A stretch of 64,000 nt of DNA. Origin: an uncultured Alphaproteobacteria bacterium (GTDB lineage: Bacteria; Pseudomonadota; Alphaproteobacteria; HIMB59; GCA-002718135). The stretch covers positions 2,217 to 66,216 of the forward strand of contig CACNPW010000001.1 in NCBI GenBank assembly GCA_902622475.1. The letters run 5' to 3'. Each line of letters starts with the position of its first letter. The first letter of the stretch is position 1. A program made the translations under genes and the position numbers. Under the pieces are notes generated by a model. It made no database searches. It saw only the letters and a program-made list of their open reading frames with translations, and had not been told where the DNA came from. Below are positions 48,572-57,510 of the stretch, one piece after another.

Positions 48572-49443
48572 TGAGTATTAAAAATGTTTCTTTTATTGGC
48601 TTAGGAGTAATGGGTTATCCAATGGCAGGTCATCTTCAAAACAAAGGTTATAATGTAACTGTATATAATAGAACAACTGCTAAAGCAGAAAAATGGGTAG
48701 AAGAATATAAAGGTATCATTGCTAAAACTCCTGGTGAAGCTTCTCAAAATTCTGAAATTGTTTTTATGTGTGTTGGACGCGATGAAGATATTATTGAAGT
48801 AATGGAAGGTGAGGATGGAATTCTTTCAAAAGTAACTGAAGGATCAATAATTGTTGATCACACAACAGCTTCCGCAGAGATAGCAAGAAATTATTATCAA
48901 AAACTTAAAGATAAAAAATTGAGTTTTCTTGATGCCCCTGTATCTGGCGGTCAAGCAGGTGCAGAAAATGGTGTTCTTTCTATTATGATTGGCGGCGATG
49001 AAAAAGATTATAATACTGTTAAACCAGTTCTCACATCTTATGGAAAAGCAGTTGAACTTATAGGTCCATCTGGATCAGGTCAAATAGCTAAAATGATAAA
49101 TCAAATTTGTATTGCGGGATTAGTTCAAAGTTTATCTGAAGCAATGGCTTTTGGAAAAAAATCCAATGTAGACATGGAAAAAGTTCTTAGCGTAATATCC
49201 AAAGGCGCAGCACAATCATGGCAAATGGAAAATAGATATAGAACTATGCTTGATGGAAAGTTTGATTACGGTTTTGCCGTAGATTGGATGCGTAAGGATT
49301 TATCAATTTGTTTTAATGAAGCTAATAAAAACGGTGCCAACCTTCCTATTACAAAAATAGTTGATAAATATTATGAAGAAGTTCAAAACAATGGTGGTAA
49401 TAGATTTGACACGTCATCTTTAATGACGCTAGTTGATAAATAG
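48571..49443 (+). CDS. NAD(P)-dependent beta-hydroxyacid dehydrogenase (3-hydroxyisobutyrate dehydrogenase family)
   Basis: FIGLGVMGYPMAGHL Rossmann motif, DAPVSGG and GSGQIAKMINQ. Confidence 0.88.
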   Translation: MSIKNVSFIGLGVMGYPMAGHLQNKGYNVTVYNRTTAKAEKWVEEYKGIIAKTPGEASQNSEIVFMCVGRDEDIIEVMEGEDGILSKVTEGSIIVDHTTASAEIARNYYQKLKDKKLSFLDAPVSGGQAGAENGVLSIMIGGDEKDYNTVKPVLTSYGKAVELIGPSGSGQIAKMINQICIAGLVQSLSEAMAFGKKSNVDMEKVLSVISKGAAQSWQMENRYRTMLDGKFDYGFAVDWMRKDLSICFNEANKNGANLPITKIVDKYYEEVQNNGGNRFDTSSLMTLVDK

Positions 49444-50360
49444 TGGTAAATAAATATTTATTAGCTTTTATTTTATTAATTGCCTCCTCTTTTTTTTGGT
49501 CTGGAAATTTTTTCGCTGGTAAAATTGCATATAATACAGACTTGTCTCCATTTAAATTAAGTTTTTTTCGATGGACTTTAGCTTTTATTATACTTTTACC
49601 TTTTACGTATAAGGAGATAAAAAAAAATTTAAAATATTATAAAGAAAATTTTTTATTAATTAGTTTGATTGCATTTCTTGGTGTAACAATCTTTAATTCG
49701 TTTACTTACATATCTTTACAAACAACACTTGTAATTAATTCCGCTTTAATGAATTCTGTGACACCAGTTCTAATAATTGGTTTCTCATGGTTAATATTTA
49801 AAACAAAGACAAGTTTACTTCAATTTATTGGAATATTTTTATCAGTTATTGGTGCATTTTGTATAATTTTAAAAGGGAATTTAAATAATCTTTATTCTTT
49901 TCAATTTACAAGTGGTGATATTTGGATGTTTATTGCTGCACTATCATGGTGTGTATATTCAGTACTATTAAGAAAAATTGATAAAAATCTATCCCAACTT
50001 GCAACTTTAGAAGTGCTTATATTCGTTGGTTTAATTTTTCTCATACCTTTATATTTATTAGAATCTTCAAATTCTACTTTTATTCCTGATAATAGCACTG
50101 ATTACTTGATAATTATTTATGTGGCTATATTTGCAAGTATTGTTTCTTTTTTTTCATGGAATATGGGAGTTTCAATTGTAGGTGCTAACAGAGCTGGATT
50201 ATTTTTACACTTAATACCTGTATTTAGTTCAATTTGGGCAATAAGTTTTTTAGGAGAACAATTTGCTTTATTTCATTTAATTGGAACTATATTTATATTA
50301 TTGGGAATAATACTCTCAAACTTAAATTTTAAATATGTCAAAAATAATCAAAACAGATAA
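49443..50360 (+). CDS. DMT-superfamily (EamA-like) transporter (GTG start)
   Basis: About 10 TM helices in two EamA repeats. Confidence 0.85.
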   Translation: MVNKYLLAFILLIASSFFWSGNFFAGKIAYNTDLSPFKLSFFRWTLAFIILLPFTYKEIKKNLKYYKENFLLISLIAFLGVTIFNSFTYISLQTTLVINSALMNSVTPVLIIGFSWLIFKTKTSLLQFIGIFLSVIGAFCIILKGNLNNLYSFQFTSGDIWMFIAALSWCVYSVLLRKIDKNLSQLATLEVLIFVGLIFLIPLYLLESSNSTFIPDNSTDYLIIIYVAIFASIVSFFSWNMGVSIVGANRAGLFLHLIPVFSSIWAISFLGEQFALFHLIGTIFILLGIILSNLNFKYVKNNQNR

Positions 50361-50730: not shown

Positions 50731-51904
50731 TACTTTTAATACACTCCTATTTTCATCAATAGGTCATGCGCTCATGCATATGTTTGCAGCATTTTATTTT
50801 GTAATTGTTCTAACTATAGAAAAAGAATGGAATATTTCCTATGATCAATTAATAAGACTATGGTCTCTTGGAGCCCTACTAATTGGTTTAGGGGCAATTC
50901 CTTTTGGGTGGTTAAGTGATAAATGGTCTCGTTCAGGAACAATGACAATTATGTTTATTGGAATGGGATTGGCTTCAATATTATGTGGTTTAAGCACATC
51001 AGTTTCTTTTTTATTTTTTTCATTATCACTTCTTGGACTTTTCTGTTCAATCTATCATCCTGTTGGTATTCCATGGGTAATTCATGCAGCTAACAAACAA
51101 GGAAGAGCTCTTGGAGTAAATGGTATTTTTGGTGGAGTAGGAATAGGATCCGGCGCATTTGTAGCTGGCACTCTAACGGAATTACTAACTTGGCAACTAG
51201 CTTTTATATTACCTGGTTTGATATCTATTGTTATAGGATTTTATCTTATCTACTTAATTTTAATTAATAAAATATCTTATAAAAATTATTTTATTAAAAA
51301 TGATGATCAAGTTCATTCTCGTAATGAAATGATTTTAATTGCATTAATAATGCTTTTATCAATGTTTGCTCTTGGATTATCTTTTCATAATACACAAACA
51401 GCATTACCTAAAGTTTTTGAAATACGAATTGGCAATATAAACTCAATTCAAATTGGATTTATGATAGCAATTATTTATTTTATTTCTGGTGCTACAACAT
51501 TTGTTGGAGGATTACTTGCTGATCGTTTTAATCTAAAAACTATTTATTTAATTGGTATTTTTCTTCAGTTTCCTTGCTACCTAGGTATAGCTTACATATT
51601 TGGTTACTCTTTAGTAGTGTTATGTATTCTTGCTGCCGTATTTAATGCAAGTATTCTTCCTACAGAAAACCTCTTACTTGGAAGATTTACACCTCAAAAG
51701 TATCATGGTGTAGTATATGGAATTAAGTTTATTCTTGCATTTGGATCGGGACCAATTTCGGTATTTTTAATTTCAGAAATTTACTCCATAACTTTAGAGT
51801 TTACTTATTTGTTTTTAATTAATGCAATAATGATGGCTATAGTTTCAGTTTTTATTATTTTTTTACCCATTCAAAGTAATCAAAGAATAGCTACTCAGGA
51901 TTAG
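50723..51904 (+). CDS. MFS transporter (TTG start)
   Basis: About 12 TM helices and a LSDKWSR-type loop motif. Confidence 0.85.
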   Translation: MNNTFNTLLFSSIGHALMHMFAAFYFVIVLTIEKEWNISYDQLIRLWSLGALLIGLGAIPFGWLSDKWSRSGTMTIMFIGMGLASILCGLSTSVSFLFFSLSLLGLFCSIYHPVGIPWVIHAANKQGRALGVNGIFGGVGIGSGAFVAGTLTELLTWQLAFILPGLISIVIGFYLIYLILINKISYKNYFIKNDDQVHSRNEMILIALIMLLSMFALGLSFHNTQTALPKVFEIRIGNINSIQIGFMIAIIYFISGATTFVGGLLADRFNLKTIYLIGIFLQFPCYLGIAYIFGYSLVVLCILAAVFNASILPTENLLLGRFTPQKYHGVVYGIKFILAFGSGPISVFLISEIYSITLEFTYLFLINAIMMAIVSVFIIFLPIQSNQRIATQD

Positions 51905-52118
51905 ATTTTATTTCTTCAAGATAATTAATAACATCATTAAATTTTTCATCAGGTATATTTTTATAAGACATGCCAAAATGATTTTTTACTTCTAATGCAA
52001 CATGAGCATAAGGATTTCTCCCTTTTGGATGATTTGGATGATCTGGCAATTTCCCTTTTAAAAAATCTCCTGTTTTTTGGATTTCTTTCCATATTATTTT
52101 TGCATTATTTACATTCAT
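51891..52118 (-). CDS. Hypothetical 75-aa protein with ORF6C-like C-terminal motif
   Basis: Not low-complexity and does not shadow another gene. The C terminus VKNHFGMSYKNIPDEKFNDVINYLEEI recalls the phage ORF6C motif (FGV-SYKDIP...F..A..fl). Confidence 0.5.
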   Translation of the reverse strand: MNVNNAKIIWKEIQKTGDFLKGKLPDHPNHPKGRNPYAHVALEVKNHFGMSYKNIPDEKFNDVINYLEEIKSNPE

Positions 52119-52238
52119 ATTGATACAAATTCCCTAATAAATTGACATTTTTTATTAAATATTATTCTTACTTATTTAAGTATATTTTTAATAACAAAAT
52201 AATTGCAATTTTTTTTATTATTATTAAATAATTTAGAT

Positions 52239-53228
52239 ATGCACGTAGATTCTAGTATTTGGTTCAAACCTAAAATCGATCGAAAGAAATTAAAGGAATT
52301 ATCTATAAGAAGTGATTTTCCAGGATTAATTCATTTTGCGATTTATTTTTCTTCACTTATATTCTTCGGATACCTATCTTATATTTTTTGGGGTAGTTGG
52401 TTTTTTATACTGTTCTACTTTATTTATTCAACAATCTATGCTTTTAACGTTGCGAATTGGCATGAGACAGTTCATCGTACTGCTTTTAAAACTAGGTGGA
52501 TAAATGAAATTTTTTATTATCTTAGTAGTTTTCAAGGTATGGCAGAACCTCTAAGCTTAAGATGGTCACATAGTTTTCATCATTCTAATACTCTACAAAC
52601 AGAAGAAGAGTATGATCACGAAATTGAGGTATCGAGACCTACTGATCTTTTTAGATTTTTTTTGAAATTTATTCCTTTAACTGATTTAATTTATATTCAT
52701 CAATCTCCATTTGTTCATATATTTAAACTTTCATTTGGTAAATTAAGTCCAGGAATAAAAATTTCTGTGCCAGTAAGTGATATTAAAAAAATAATTAGAA
52801 ATGCAAGAATTTATTTACTAATTTGGTTTGCTATTATTTTATCTTGTTTTTATTTTGATACTATTTTACCAATTTTGTTTTACTTTTTGCCATCATACGT
52901 AGGTAAACCTATACAATTTGCTGTCAATGTTACACAGCATCTTGCTGCTAAATTTGATTCAAAGGATCACCGATTAAGCACACATACAGTAATATTAAAT
53001 CCTATATTTAGCTTTTTATACTGGCATATGGAATATCATTTAGAGCATCATATGTTTCCAATGGTTCCTTCATATAATTTAAAAAAATTGAGAAAGGAAA
53101 TTGAAAGTCAGCTACCTAGACCTTTCAATGGATTGTTTGATTTTTACAAGACAATTCTACCATATTTGATTAAACTTGCTTTTAACTCAAATGATTACTA
53201 TCGAGTAAAATTGCCAGAAAATACCTAA
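52239..53228 (+). CDS. Membrane fatty-acid-desaturase-family protein
   Basis: Three His boxes: HETVH, HSFHH and HLEHH. Has TM helices. I preferred ATG 52239 over TTG 52203. Confidence 0.85.
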   Translation: MHVDSSIWFKPKIDRKKLKELSIRSDFPGLIHFAIYFSSLIFFGYLSYIFWGSWFFILFYFIYSTIYAFNVANWHETVHRTAFKTRWINEIFYYLSSFQGMAEPLSLRWSHSFHHSNTLQTEEEYDHEIEVSRPTDLFRFFLKFIPLTDLIYIHQSPFVHIFKLSFGKLSPGIKISVPVSDIKKIIRNARIYLLIWFAIILSCFYFDTILPILFYFLPSYVGKPIQFAVNVTQHLAAKFDSKDHRLSTHTVILNPIFSFLYWHMEYHLEHHMFPMVPSYNLKKLRKEIESQLPRPFNGLFDFYKTILPYLIKLAFNSNDYYRVKLPENT

Positions 53229-53297
53229 AAGTCTCAATTTTCTTTATATTACCAAAATTTAAAACAACATTTATAAACATTATTCAATCTATAATGT

Positions 53298-53326
53298 TTG
53301 ACAGAAAATCTTTCTTATATTTCAAT
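53298..53326 (+). promoter_or_regulatory. Candidate sigma-70 promoter of the ABC operon (TTGACA-N17-TTCAAT)
   Basis: Perfect -35 at 53298-53303, a 17-nt spacer, and a 4/6 match at -10. About 25 nt upstream of a strong GGGAGG SD. Confidence 0.3.
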
Positions 53327-53357
53327 AAATTATACATTAATTTATTGGGAGGTAAAA

Positions 53358-54768
53358 ATGTTAAAAAAAATAATCGTACTTATTAGTACAACTACTATTT
53401 TTTCTTCATTTATATTTTCAAGCTCTCATGCATTTGAATGTGATATTCCAATTTTAGAAAGTTCATCAGATGCTGTTAAAGCTTATTATATACCTGAAAA
53501 AAAAATTTGAAGGAATGAGTATAAATGTACCAAAGGAAAATGTTGAGAACGATATTGAAAAGGGTTGCAGAGAAAAATTTGAAGAATTATCTGGAGCTAA
53601 AGTAAATGTAATAGTTTTTCCAAAACAAAAAGATATGCTTGATGCAATCAATCTAGCTTTAGCAACTAATAGCGGAGAATTTGATGTTATGACATCAGGT
53701 GCAGGTGGAGCAAAGGAGTATGGCTTAGGTGGACATCTAAACCCTTTACAAACACCACCAGATATAGATGATTTTTATACTGGTGATATTAATCAATATA
53801 GTATTGGTGGAAAACTTATGGGTATACCTAGTATAGCTGATACTAATATATTGTATTGGAGAACTGATTTATTTGAACAAGCAGGTTTGGATCCAAACAA
53901 ACCACCTAAAACATATTCAGAATTAACTGAATATGCAAAACTGTTAACAATAGATAAAAATGGTAAAAATAGCACTGAAGAGGGATTTGATAAAAATAAT
54001 ATTGATATCTATGGTTATGGTTTTAGAGGTGAAGCAAGTTTAGCAAGCCCTTGGCAATGGTATAACTATCTCTTTGCATTTGGTGGAGATTTATTTGATA
54101 GCGAATATAATATTATTATTGATCAGCCAGAGTCCGTAGCTTCACTACAATGGGTTGTAGATAATTACAGAGTGCACAATATTATGCCAGCTGACACACC
54201 TGTTTATGACTATGGCGCATTCCACACTTTGTTTATACAGGGCAAAATGGCTATGGCTGTAAATTGGCCATATATGTATGGTATGTCTCAAGACCCTGAA
54301 CAATCAAATGTTGTAGGCAAGGTAGCTGTAGGAAGAAAACCTATGGAAGTGAGACATGCTGGTAATATGGGCGGATGGTCTTGGAGTGTTTTGAAAATGT
54401 CTCAGAAACAAGAACTAGCTGAGGCTTATGCAAAATGGAATGGTAATCCTGACATGGCAGTTTATAATGCTGTTTTAAGGGGAAATGCTCCTGCTAGAAG
54501 ATCTGCTACTGAAAGAATGATAGAAGAAAATCCAGTTATTGCCGGTGCTATTGCTCAAAACTTACCTGATAATATGGGAGTTAAGTGGATAGATACAGGA
54601 CCTTCATGGATGGCACTAGAAAAAGAAACTTGGAAGTTCATCCAATTTGCTTTGACAGGAGAAAAAACACCTGAACAAGCTTTAAAGGATGCAAAAGTTG
54701 AAATGGAGAAAATTCTCAAAAGAGATAGATTCTATGAGGAAATTGCTCCACAACTTCTAGGGAATTAA
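53358..54768 (+). pseudogene. ABC transporter substrate-binding protein (family 1, sugar-type), reading frame broken at an A9 tract
   Basis: The GGGAGG SD, ATG 53358 and signal peptide MLKKIIVLISTTTIFSSFIFSSSHA lie in frame 0 and stop at 53508. The mature SBP domain (to 54768) is in frame +1. The frames meet at A9 (53497-53505), and A8 would give ...YYIPEKKFEGMSINV... Confidence 0.8.
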
Positions 54769-54785
54769 TTCAAATAAAAATTATC

Positions 54786-54808
54786 ACAGGCAGCATATTG
54801 CTGCCTGT
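54786..54808 (+). other. GC-rich intercistronic stem-loop after the SBP gene
   Basis: ACAGGCAGCA-tat-TGCTGCCTGT forms a perfect 10-bp stem. It is followed by an A-run, not a U-run. Confidence 0.6.
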
Positions 54809-54816
54809 AAAAAAAT

Positions 54817-55704
54817 ATGAAATTTATAAACTCTTCTTCTTTTTTTGGTGGGGCAATAATACTACCAGGTGTAATAATTTTATTGTTATTTTATTTATAT
54901 CCATTAGCTTATTCTCTTTTTATAAGTTTACATGATTTTAGGTTAATAAGACCAGATTTAACTCAATTTGTTGGTTTTAGAAATTATTTTGAAATTTTTT
55001 ATGATGATGAGTTCCTTAACGCTTTCATTAATACTCTTATTTATGTTGGAATATCTTTACCTTTTGAATTAGTAATTGGCCTTTTTTTGGCTTTAGCTTT
55101 GGATAAAATTACAAGAGGAAAAAATATAATTAGAGCTTTTTTAATCGTTCCACAATTTTTGGCTCCTCTTGCCATGGGTTTCATATGGAAATTTATGTAC
55201 AATGATGATTTAGGAATAATAAATTTTTTTCTTCGTTTTGTAGGAATGGAAAGGCCACCATTGTGGATAGCTGATCCTGCAATATCCTTGTACAGCTGTA
55301 TAATTGTTGAGATTTGGGCTTGTGTTCCTATTTTTATGCTTTTGCTTTCTGCAGGGTTAACAACTTTATCAACTGAAATTATTGATGCTGCAAAAATTGA
55401 TGGTGCGAATGCTTATCATCGTCTTCGCTATATAATACTTCCTCATTTAAAACCTATTATTCTTGTGACATTATTAATAAGAGGAATGGATTCATTTAGA
55501 ATATTTGATTTAATTTATGGACTCACGCAAGGTGGCCCAGCCATGAGTAGTGATGTTTTATCATTGTACATGTATAGGTCAGGAATGTTGGATCGACAAT
55601 TTGGTTATTCAGCAAGCGCAGGATGGATTATGGTATTTATGATGTTAATTGCATCTTATATTCTTATTAAACTTATGTACAGAGATGGGATCAACAAACA
55701 ATGA
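54817..55704 (+). CDS. ABC transporter permease (MalF/UgpA-like)
   Basis: Six TMs and an EAA-loop region IIDAAKIDGANAYHRLRYIILP. Confidence 0.9.
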   Translation: MKFINSSSFFGGAIILPGVIILLLFYLYPLAYSLFISLHDFRLIRPDLTQFVGFRNYFEIFYDDEFLNAFINTLIYVGISLPFELVIGLFLALALDKITRGKNIIRAFLIVPQFLAPLAMGFIWKFMYNDDLGIINFFLRFVGMERPPLWIADPAISLYSCIIVEIWACVPIFMLLLSAGLTTLSTEIIDAAKIDGANAYHRLRYIILPHLKPIILVTLLIRGMDSFRIFDLIYGLTQGGPAMSSDVLSLYMYRSGMLDRQFGYSASAGWIMVFMMLIASYILIKLMYRDGINKQ

Positions 55705-56522
55705 ATAAGAGTGAAAAAAGATTAACAACAATAAGTTGGTTCTTTATTAGCTTATCTCTGTTTATATGGTTATTTCCAATTATCTGGTTCGCATTGGCTT
55801 CTTTTAAAAATCCAAAAAATTTATATGATATTTTTTCATTTGAATTTAGTTTGTATAACTACAGAGAGGTCTTTAATACATATCCAATTGCAACCTATAT
55901 GAAAAATAGCTTAATTTTAGCAATTTCAGCAACGTTATTTGCTGTTACAATAGGTACTTTAGTTGCTTACGGCTTAAGTCATACTCGTTTTCGATTTAAG
56001 ACACAAACAACTGTTTTTATCTTTTTATTAAGACTTATTCCAGGAATGGCTGTAATGGTTCCTCTATTTATAATTTTTTCATCATTAGGATTAACAAATA
56101 CCTATCATGGATTAATTTTTGCTCATACAACTATGTCAATTCCTTTGGTTGTTATAATAATGCTTGGATATTTATCAGATTTTCCAAAAGAACTTTTAGA
56201 TGCAGCTTATATTGATGGATGTAATAAATTTAATGTAATTTATTTAATAGTTTTCCCACTTATTAAACCTGGGTTAGCAGTTGTAGCAATTTTTACATTT
56301 ATTGGTAGCTGGAATAATTTTGATATTGCATTGATTCTTGGTTACATGCCTGAATATAAGACTCTACCACTTGGTCTTGCTGGTATGGGAAATAGATATG
56401 GAATATTATGGCATCATGTTGCAGCTGCAGGTGCAGTATACATAATTCCAACAGTAATTATGGCCATAACACTTTCCAAATATGTAATTAGTGGATTAAC
56501 TGTTGGAGCAATTAAAGGATAA
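55701..56522 (+). CDS. ABC transporter permease (MalG/UgpE-like)
   Basis: Six TMs and an EAA-loop LLDAAYIDGCNKFNVIYLIVFP. Confidence 0.9.
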   Translation: MNKSEKRLTTISWFFISLSLFIWLFPIIWFALASFKNPKNLYDIFSFEFSLYNYREVFNTYPIATYMKNSLILAISATLFAVTIGTLVAYGLSHTRFRFKTQTTVFIFLLRLIPGMAVMVPLFIIFSSLGLTNTYHGLIFAHTTMSIPLVVIIMLGYLSDFPKELLDAAYIDGCNKFNVIYLIVFPLIKPGLAVVAIFTFIGSWNNFDIALILGYMPEYKTLPLGLAGMGNRYGILWHHVAAAGAVYIIPTVIMAITLSKYVISGLTVGAIKG

Positions 56523-56549
56523 AAAAAAATAACATCTATATTATTTTTT

Positions 56550-57510
56550 ATGAATTCTAATTCGAAAATAAAATACTTTAATTTAAATGAATTTGAGCTT
56601 TCAGATGGAGATAAAAAAAAGGAATTAATAATAAATTTAGATAATGTCTGTAAAGATACTGGTTTTTTATTAATCACAGGCCATAATATAGATAGAAAAA
56701 TAATTGATAATATTTGGTCAGTGGTAGATCTTTTTTTTGAACAACCGATTGAATTTAAGCTAAAAATTAGTCCTCCATATAAGGGGTATCCATACGGCTA
56801 TCTTGCTAAAGGTTTAGAGGCTTTAGCTTATTCTAAGGGAGAAAAAACACCTCCTGATTTAAAGGAAAGTTTTAATGCTGGACCATTATTAATTCCTGAT
56901 TCTATATCTGATAAAGAAGCACTTGAATTTTGCTATGCTCCTTCATTATGGCCAGAAATATTAAATTTTCAAAAATATTGGAGTGAATACTATAATTCGA
57001 TGCAAAAATTATCTACACGCGTAATGAGATCTTTCGCATTGGCATTGAATCTTGATGAAACTTATTTTGACCAATACATAGACAAAAATATTTCAGCTTT
57101 AAGAGCACTTAATTATCCTCCAGTTCAAAAAATTTTACCAAAACAACAGATGGCAGGTGCCCATACTGATTATGGTAGTCTTACAATATTACTACCAAAG
57201 GATAATACCAGTGGACTTCAAATTAAAAATCTTGCAGGAGAATGGATAGATGTACCTAGTGATCCTAATATTTTTGTCTGCAATATTGGAGACTTGATGG
57301 CCCAATGGACAAATAATAGATGGGTTTCTACTTTACATAGAGTGGTACCTAATAAAAAAAAATAATAATAGAAGGTCACTTGCTTTTTTTCATCAACCTA
57401 ATTGGGATGCAGAGATAAAATGTTTAGAAAGTTGTAGAGGAAAGAAAGAAAATTATAAACCAGTTCAATCAGGGCCATATTTAATGTCAAAATTTAAGTC
57501 TACTTTATAA
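56550..57510 (+). pseudogene. 2-oxoglutarate/Fe(II)-dependent oxygenase (isopenicillin-N-synthase family), reading frame broken at an A9 tract
   Basis: The HxD motif (AHTDYG) and distal His (LHRV) lie in frame 0, which stops at 57363. The expected C terminus RRSLAFFHQPNWDAEIKCL...YLMSKFKSTL continues in frame +1 to 57510. The junction is at A9 (57354-57362). Confidence 0.8.

Follow-up and report, generated by a model that had tools for sequence, protein, structure and literature searches.

The gene for a solute-binding protein (SBP) in the stretch of DNA analysed here (64 kb, hereafter the window) is divided between two reading frames that meet at a run of nine adenosines, which raises the question of whether the cell makes one protein from two frames, has recently lost the gene, or never carried the ninth adenosine. 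The original prediction had set three readings side by side: a sequencing error, a recent inactivating mutation, and expression that depends on slippage of RNA polymerase. The first two survive the analysis below and share nearly all of the probability between them; the third is not supported.

The divided layout is present as it had been described. A Shine-Dalgarno sequence, GGGAGG (53347-53352; the coordinates of genes, tracts and cassette are all given on the + strand), stands 5 nt upstream of ATG 53358; the same hexamer is found in the relatives L002 and L003, and TGGAGG in L001. The ATG opens a frame whose first 25 codons (53358-53432) translate into a putative Sec-type signal peptide (MLKKIIVLISTTTIFSSFIFSSSHA), with a KK n-region, a hydrophobic core and an S-H-A cleavage motif as its predicted features, and an equivalent signal peptide is predicted at the start of every full-length SBP orthologue. 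This frame crosses the tract of exactly nine A (53497-53505) and is closed after 50 codons by TGA 53508-53510, giving the C-terminal end ...YYIPEKKI (...AVKAYYIPEKKI, followed by the stop). The mature part of the protein (53506-54768) is read in the +1 frame, within a long open reading frame (ORF) of 432 codons that extends from 53470 to 54768 (53470 - 53358 = 112 = 3 x 37 + 1). The downstream ORF alone appears to have no export signal, in agreement with the earlier claim that the protein would lack one without its upstream part.

Deletion of one A from the SBP tract gives a continuous protein of 469 aa with the junction ...AVKAYYIPEKKFEGMSINVPKE..., across which the predicted peptide is YYIPEKKFEGMSINVPK. 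The seamless product that had been expected from this change is also what the orthologues encode, all of which read through the junction (for example P0001, 469 aa and 99% identical). The repaired protein matches the Pfam profiles SBP_bac_1 (PF01547; 5.5e-28, 99.3 bits) and SBP_bac_8 (PF13416; 2e-25, 90.6 bits), against curated cut-offs of 26 and 27 bits, and its nearest solved structures in the PDB are MalE3 (6dtq, 2e-30) and a trehalose/maltose-binding protein (1eu8, 5e-24). With this domain score, a predicted N-terminal export signal and adjoining genes for MalF/MalG-type permeases, it has every mark of a CUT1 sugar-type ABC SBP.

The SBP gene is the first of four in an operon, followed by permease 1 (54817-55704), permease 2 (55701-56522) and a 2OG-Fe(II) oxygenase gene. 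Both permeases are intact BPD_transp_1 proteins by their domain matches, and a protein identical to permease 1 was read on 23 contigs. Between the SBP and permease genes lies a GC-rich hairpin with a 12-bp stem (54784-54810, strand not assigned). In its SBP and two BPD_transp_1 permeases the operon resembles CUT1 sugar ABC importers, with their MalE/UgpB-like SBPs and MalF/MalG-like permeases, and like many CUT1 systems it has no ATPase gene; it differs from them by its IPNS/EFE-like 2OG oxygenase and an adjoining desaturase-like gene. For the importer genes of the window, all NCBIfam equivalogs stay below their cut-offs. Together with the desaturase-like gene and a 75-aa ORF, the SBP, permease and oxygenase genes form a cassette of ~6 kb (51400-57400), in which sliding identity between genomes reaches 98-100%, against 90-96% in the flanks. 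The cassette is patchily distributed, being carried by only three GTDB species representatives. A sister lineage, whose SBP is 88% identical and lies in the same synteny, has ThuA-like and Gfo/Idh/MocA genes 3′ of the oxygenase that the window is without; these neighbours suggest the catabolism of a sugar or sugar derivative. Proteins exactly matching those of the window share clusters with proteins that bear the name Pelagibacteraceae, which supports the SAR11 affiliation originally proposed.

The window has a GC content of 27.3% and contains 69 A/T runs of at least eight, including 23 of at least nine. Given this low GC content and the many long A/T runs, an A9 is in itself ordinary here; the unusual part is the breakage of a gene. 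When all homopolymers in the 64-kb window were checked for gene fusion upon a change of ±1, a second gene-breaking A9 was found in the same operon, 3.9 kb downstream of the SBP tract, which had been absent from the original prediction. The other fusions in this check were trivial ones at gene boundaries, and no third broken gene was found at any homopolymer of the 64-kb window. Gene-breaking runs thus number two among the 66 coding runs of at least eight.

The second tract (57354-57362) lies in the oxygenase gene. The N-terminal 271 codons (56550-57365) cover DIOX_N and 2OG-FeII_Oxy and end in ...HRVVPNKKK and a stop, and the C-terminal 48 codons, which contain the RRS (RxS) motif, follow in the +1 frame (57363-57510, with the stop TAA at 57508-57510). 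The frameshift therefore cuts off the RxS 2-oxoglutarate-binding motif. Deletion of one A yields 319 aa with the junction ...HRVVPNKKNNNRRSLAFFHQPNWDAEI..., and the Pfam match to 2OG-FeII_Oxy then reaches 101/101 of the profile at 75.4 bits, compared with 89/101 and 63.9 bits for the truncated product. The repaired protein aligns with PDB 9ovh through the junction, with matches at HTD, HRV and RRS, the RxS being 3′ of the frameshift. Only after removal of one A does the protein combine PF14226, PF03171, the His-x-Asp...His triad and RxS, as in an IPNS/EFE-like oxygenase. The SBP and oxygenase lesions are both of the A8-to-A9 type and call for the same correction.

Relatives of the locus were gathered by a genome scan and by exact-protein look-ups through the permeases, giving an orthologue set of five distinct single amplified genomes (SAGs) together with Illumina metagenome contigs (Tara, Logan, ENA and JGI). 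The genome scan found a full-length SBP gene in three GORG single-cell genomes, AG-422-N03, AG-891-E15 and AG-457-C19. In all 13 independent orthologous sequences the SBP tract is A8 and the gene intact at 469 aa; the oxygenase tract is likewise A8, and the gene intact at 319 aa, in 12 of 12. Length polymorphism at the coding tracts was accordingly 0/13 and 0/12 among these consensus assemblies, in which minor alleles are invisible. The closest relatives are 99.2-99.7% identical to the window. Compared with two relatives, L034 and L037, the two tracts are the only gaps in 5.8 kb, and over the whole SBP gene contig L046 differs from the window by the additional A alone. Across all relatives, pairwise BLAST over 16.5-38 kb and 45-62.8 kb showed uncompensated coding indels in the window at the two A9 tracts only, and within the operon the comparison showed no other indel or stop and no further decay.

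The broken products themselves (SBP pieces of 432, 417 and 50 aa, and the 271-aa oxygenase) have no exact match on record in other assemblies, and members of the SBP protein clusters are nearly all 467-471 aa long. The short members of these clusters were considered as further broken genes and rejected, because they sit on short contigs or miss only termini. Among the JGI metagenome contigs an A9-specific pattern gave no matches and a variable-length pattern found the locus on one contig only, with A8, which leaves this collection uninformative for the lineage. A third A9 tract, which runs from the stop codon of permease 2 into the spacer (56521-56529), is A9 in five relatives and A8 in nine; the length of this run is a natural polymorphism.

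The sister lineage has neither coding run. Its SBP gene reads GAA AAT AAA TTT (ENKF; GAAAATAAATTT / GAAAATAAA) at the site of the tract and its oxygenase gene AAT AAA TAT AAT CAA AAT (NKYNQN; AATAAATATAAT), without a long run, and the same holds for all five sister-lineage loci examined. Remoter SBP homologues have YYVPENKYAGK, YYMPGSFEGQ and similar sequences at this position, always in one frame. Because the sister lineage lacks the homopolymer, the tract is young and does not represent a conserved recoding signal. Comparing tract length at orthologous loci had been put forward as a check on the split gene, and its outcome, 13/13 with A8, points away from recoding. In sum, the lesions are private, the orthologues intact and the tracts young.

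A number of rare point variants of the window turn up mosaically in independent metagenome contigs, indicating that they are real alleles. The two additional A's recur nowhere. The SBP gene carries zero private substitutions, and the operon's four remaining private substitutions are all in the oxygenase gene (two synonymous, two nonsynonymous); a private SNP, 57411A, follows the last A of the oxygenase tract (57362) by 49 bp. The ratio of synonymous to nonsynonymous changes among the operon's rare variants was considered as a test of selection on the window's branch and dropped, because these are mostly shared alleles and the four private ones are too few.

We favour, with modest confidence, a homopolymer-length artefact, with A8 truly present at both sites. 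On this view the SBP A9 has grown by one base from a young A8 in an ordinary single-frame gene, an expansion confined to one assembly, and a matching A8-to-A9 change breaks the oxygenase in the same operon. The cause would most likely be an error in homopolymer length during single-cell genome amplification, sequencing and assembly; the real cell would carry A8 at both tracts and produce a normal exported SBP. The window's long-contig relatives are all GORG-Tropics SAGs, and we infer that the window also derives from a single amplified genome and that its extra A's are artefacts. In the sister SAG AG-422-N03, topA, a normally essential gene, has T8 in place of T7 and is split into 72 + 787 aa, compared with 841 aa in two other SAGs. 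Benchmarking of the SCGC SAG workflow gave 3.0 indels per 100 kb (PMC11247762, PMC8443664), which translates to ~1.9 expected per 64 kb against two observed, provided that the source is, as inferred, a SAG. A similar rate of artefacts, ~26 frameshifts per genome, is seen in ONT assemblies of Pelagibacter (10.64898/2026.04.03.716430).

The two lesions resemble the homopolymer indel artefacts of single-cell (MDA/WGA-X) and long-read assemblies from AT-rich genomes in several respects: each adds one base to a long A/T run, is confined to one assembly, and affects a gene that does not otherwise differ from its relatives; their rate in the window would fit the SCGC and ONT benchmarks if the source is of such a type; and a comparable frameshift affects topA in a sister SAG. 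They differ from such artefacts in that both are clustered in one accessory operon. MDA-amplified single-cell DNA has regional coverage troughs, however. These could cluster errors, and the clustering is therefore not decisive for biology.

The same clustering speaks for a second explanation, to which we give a lesser though still substantial share of belief, namely that the two A9 tracts are genuine mutations of very recent date, private to the cell or clone, and that an accessory sugar-uptake cassette is starting to become a set of pseudogenes. One frameshift would silence the transporter operon, the rest would become neutral, and a second slippery run would then mutate. Both lesions fall in one four-gene accessory operon, with none in 61 other coding runs of at least eight and none in a core gene; the chance of two random lesions sharing a transcription unit is ~0.11, and exactly such a pattern is expected if selection removes real mutations from core genes. 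The patchy distribution of the cassette, the absence from the window's lineage of the ThuA-like and Gfo/Idh/MocA genes retained by the sister lineage, the placement of all four private substitutions in the oxygenase, and the genuine A8/A9 variation among Illumina contigs at the neighbouring intergenic tract 56521 are all in keeping with a real loss. SAR11 is without mutS and mutL (PMC12374537), which should make genuine indels in homopolymers common, and ~127 kb of sister SAG sequence has one frameshift only, a rate below the window's. Yet decay is otherwise missing, the SBP gene being free of private substitutions and L046 identical save for the indel, and the A9 allele occurs in no sampled consensus sequence at either site. 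The operon's rare variants (seven synonymous and three nonsynonymous, mostly shared alleles) are distributed as under purifying selection, two independent real frameshifts in so short a divergence would imply a high rate, and the type and rate of the lesions fit the known artefact profile, including the frameshift in essential topA. Among the marks of a decaying pseudogene, the disrupted frame is present, and neither further lesions nor relaxed selection was found in the operon. That the two runs are replication-slippage switches by which SAR11 populations vary the expression of the cassette between ON and OFF (phase variation) seems to us highly doubtful, even though both A8 runs arose recently in the cassette clade (the sister lineage interrupts them with AAT and TAT), the SBP tract lies early (5′) in its gene, the cassette itself shows recent spread among diverged genomes, and the neighbouring intergenic run is A8 or A9. 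Homopolymer tracts have reportedly been proposed in one paper as general switches, and phase-variable contingency genes with such tracts are known from Neisseria, Haemophilus and Campylobacter. The window shares with these genes a mutable 5′ homopolymer and an ON/OFF outcome, but its coding tracts show no length variation in the 13 and 12 independent sequences (consensus assemblies), and its gene classes are atypical, the products being a periplasmic SBP and a cytoplasmic enzyme, unlike the surface structures of contingency loci. Two separate switches per operon would be redundant, and lysine-rich, AT-rich genomes make such runs by chance, as the window's own coding runs of at least eight illustrate. 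We see a small chance that both A's are real and that mismatch-repair-less SAR11 cells switch long coding homopolymers reversibly and at high rates, with private ON/OFF states of accessory cassettes in individual wild cells hidden by consensus assemblies; here the cassette would be one for sugar-type uptake and oxygenation that has just swept diverged genotypes, and occasional A8 transcripts might allow slight leakage.

A real A9 could also be compatible with expression if the frame were restored, either by RNA polymerase slippage from A9 to A8 or by a +1 ribosomal slip on AAA-AAA-A, which we regard as very improbable. Bacterial RNA polymerase starts slipping at around nine A/T, and A9 is present at both sites; indel frequency climbs exponentially with run length (PMC5574713). 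The SBP and oxygenase genes are otherwise intact, and by our reasoning either site would, after a +1 slip, encode a wild-type or near wild-type sequence. The shifted arrangement, however, is unconserved: orthologues are in one frame at both genes, and the sister lineage is without the run. A conserved shifted arrangement is the defining mark of a selected recoding site, and since it is missing here the site, even with real lesions, would not be a new expression mechanism. For rescue, the mRNA would also have to lose one base or gain two, whereas in transcriptome-wide data slippage of bacterial RNA polymerase in A/T runs mostly adds bases (PMC5574713). In Buchnera, 151/157 insertions as against 16/57 deletions are in homopolymers, and of the deletions in E. 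coli less than 1% are (PMC5574713); in reporter assays with E. coli RNA polymerase, deletion rescue was undetectable for poly(A) runs of up to 8 and 10% on T8 (PMC6260861). On the ribosome, -1 frameshifting on A-AAA-AAA was considered and rejected, as it gives the wrong frame where +1 is required. Familiar examples of programmed ribosomal frameshifting are prfB (+1) and dnaX (-1). The window shares with them an A-rich slippery sequence at a two-frame junction and, at the oxygenase site only, a run followed immediately by a stop. It differs from them in lacking conservation and in having a sense codon in the SBP A site (AUU 3′ of the run, with UGA one codon on); no Shine-Dalgarno-like stimulator was seen upstream of the SBP tract, and downstream RNA folding is no better than in shuffled controls (z = -1.36 and +1.88 at the two tracts). 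The closest precedent comes from Buchnera and Blochmannia, where poly(A) frameshifts are rescued by transcriptional slippage, as Tamas et al. reportedly described in 2008. These hosts, too, offer an AT-rich reduced genome and a one-base indel in the poly(A) of an otherwise intact gene. Frameshifted genes of insect endosymbionts yield ~30% full-length transcripts, and such frameshifts persist across populations or species, as with an 11-A tract in visC (PMC3017870). In contrast to these conserved frameshifts, the window's lesion is private, its run is nine long, its host is a free-living organism of huge population size, and a deletion slip would be needed. A private lesion, a tract missing in the sister lineage, the lack of downstream RNA structure at both tracts and of an A-site stop at the SBP tract, and the rarity of deletion slips together weigh against slippage-dependent expression as originally suggested. 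A trace of corrected transcript may nevertheless be made, and nothing hints that the cell depends on it.

Considered as biology, then, the split gene is most likely not real, and if it is real it would be a homopolymer frameshift of an ordinary and familiar type. Should the extra A's be artefacts, split or truncated genes at A/T runs of at least eight in SAR11 single-cell and long-read assemblies need checking against population sequences before pseudogenes or recoding sites are called, and the window offers two neighbouring examples. If they are real, the locus would show directly how the loss of an accessory operon begins in a single wild SAR11 cell, and would be relevant to how a genome deficient in mismatch repair and rich in homopolymers copes with its mutability.

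A second A9 tract, at 57354-57362, disrupts the 2OG-Fe(II) oxygenase gene (56550-57510), which lies in the same operon as the solute-binding protein (SBP) gene. The corresponding site is A8 in 12/12 relatives (orthologous loci from SAR11 single-cell genomes and metagenome contigs), and the RxS motif of the oxygenase lies past the break. This gene also carries all of the operon substitutions that are still private to the window (n = 4, at 56678, 56726, 56761 and 57411), comprising two synonymous changes, one Q→L and one G→R, compared with none in the remaining 3.1 kb of the operon. These substitutions could derive from an unsampled recombination donor, or could reflect selection that is starting to relax.

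Homopolymer length also differs among these genomes at other positions. A run at 56521-56529, which begins inside the permease-2 stop codon and is A9 in the window, is A9 in five relatives and A8 in nine; the run shows that A8/A9 length varies naturally where no reading frame needs protecting. In the sister GORG single-cell genome AG-422-N03, a T8 run aligned to window position ~61226 divides DNA topoisomerase I into 72 and 787 aa, while the other genomes carry T7 or T6. This T8 is probably a homopolymer artefact of the same class as the A9 breaks in the window.

Between the binding-protein and permease genes lies a GC-rich hairpin with a perfect 12-bp stem (54784-54810), which has a terminator score on the minus strand only. 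On the plus strand, it may be a stem with a stabilising or attenuating effect on the mRNA, of the kind typical in ABC operons that begin with the SBP gene.

Two further loci differ among the genomes compared. Window positions 49359-50358, overlapping an EamA-family gene (49443-50360), show ~71% identity to relatives that reach 90-95% on both sides, and this stretch appears to be a transporter allele that is either hypervariable or replaced. Upstream of trpE, the window and all other relatives have a SurA-like gene, but one single-cell genome (GCA_902535885.1, positions 1-1824 of locus L041) carries a Capsule_synth gene there instead; this difference is due either to rearrangement or to a chimera formed during amplification.

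Downstream of the oxygenase, the sister lineage (L050-L054) carries two additional genes before peptidase C1, encoding a ThuA-like protein and a Gfo/Idh/MocA oxidoreductase; the window lacks both at this site, where the oxygenase-to-peptidase C1 gap is 17 bp. This comparison hints at a sugar-related role for the cassette and at gene loss at an earlier stage. The cassette itself spans ~6 kb (~51400-57400) and contains a 75-aa ORF, a desaturase-like gene, the ABC transporter and the oxygenase. It is 98-100% identical among SAR11 genomes, whereas the flanking DNA reaches just 90-96%. Given this excess of identity over the flanks, the cassette looks like the product of recent spread by recombination, or of a gene-specific sweep.
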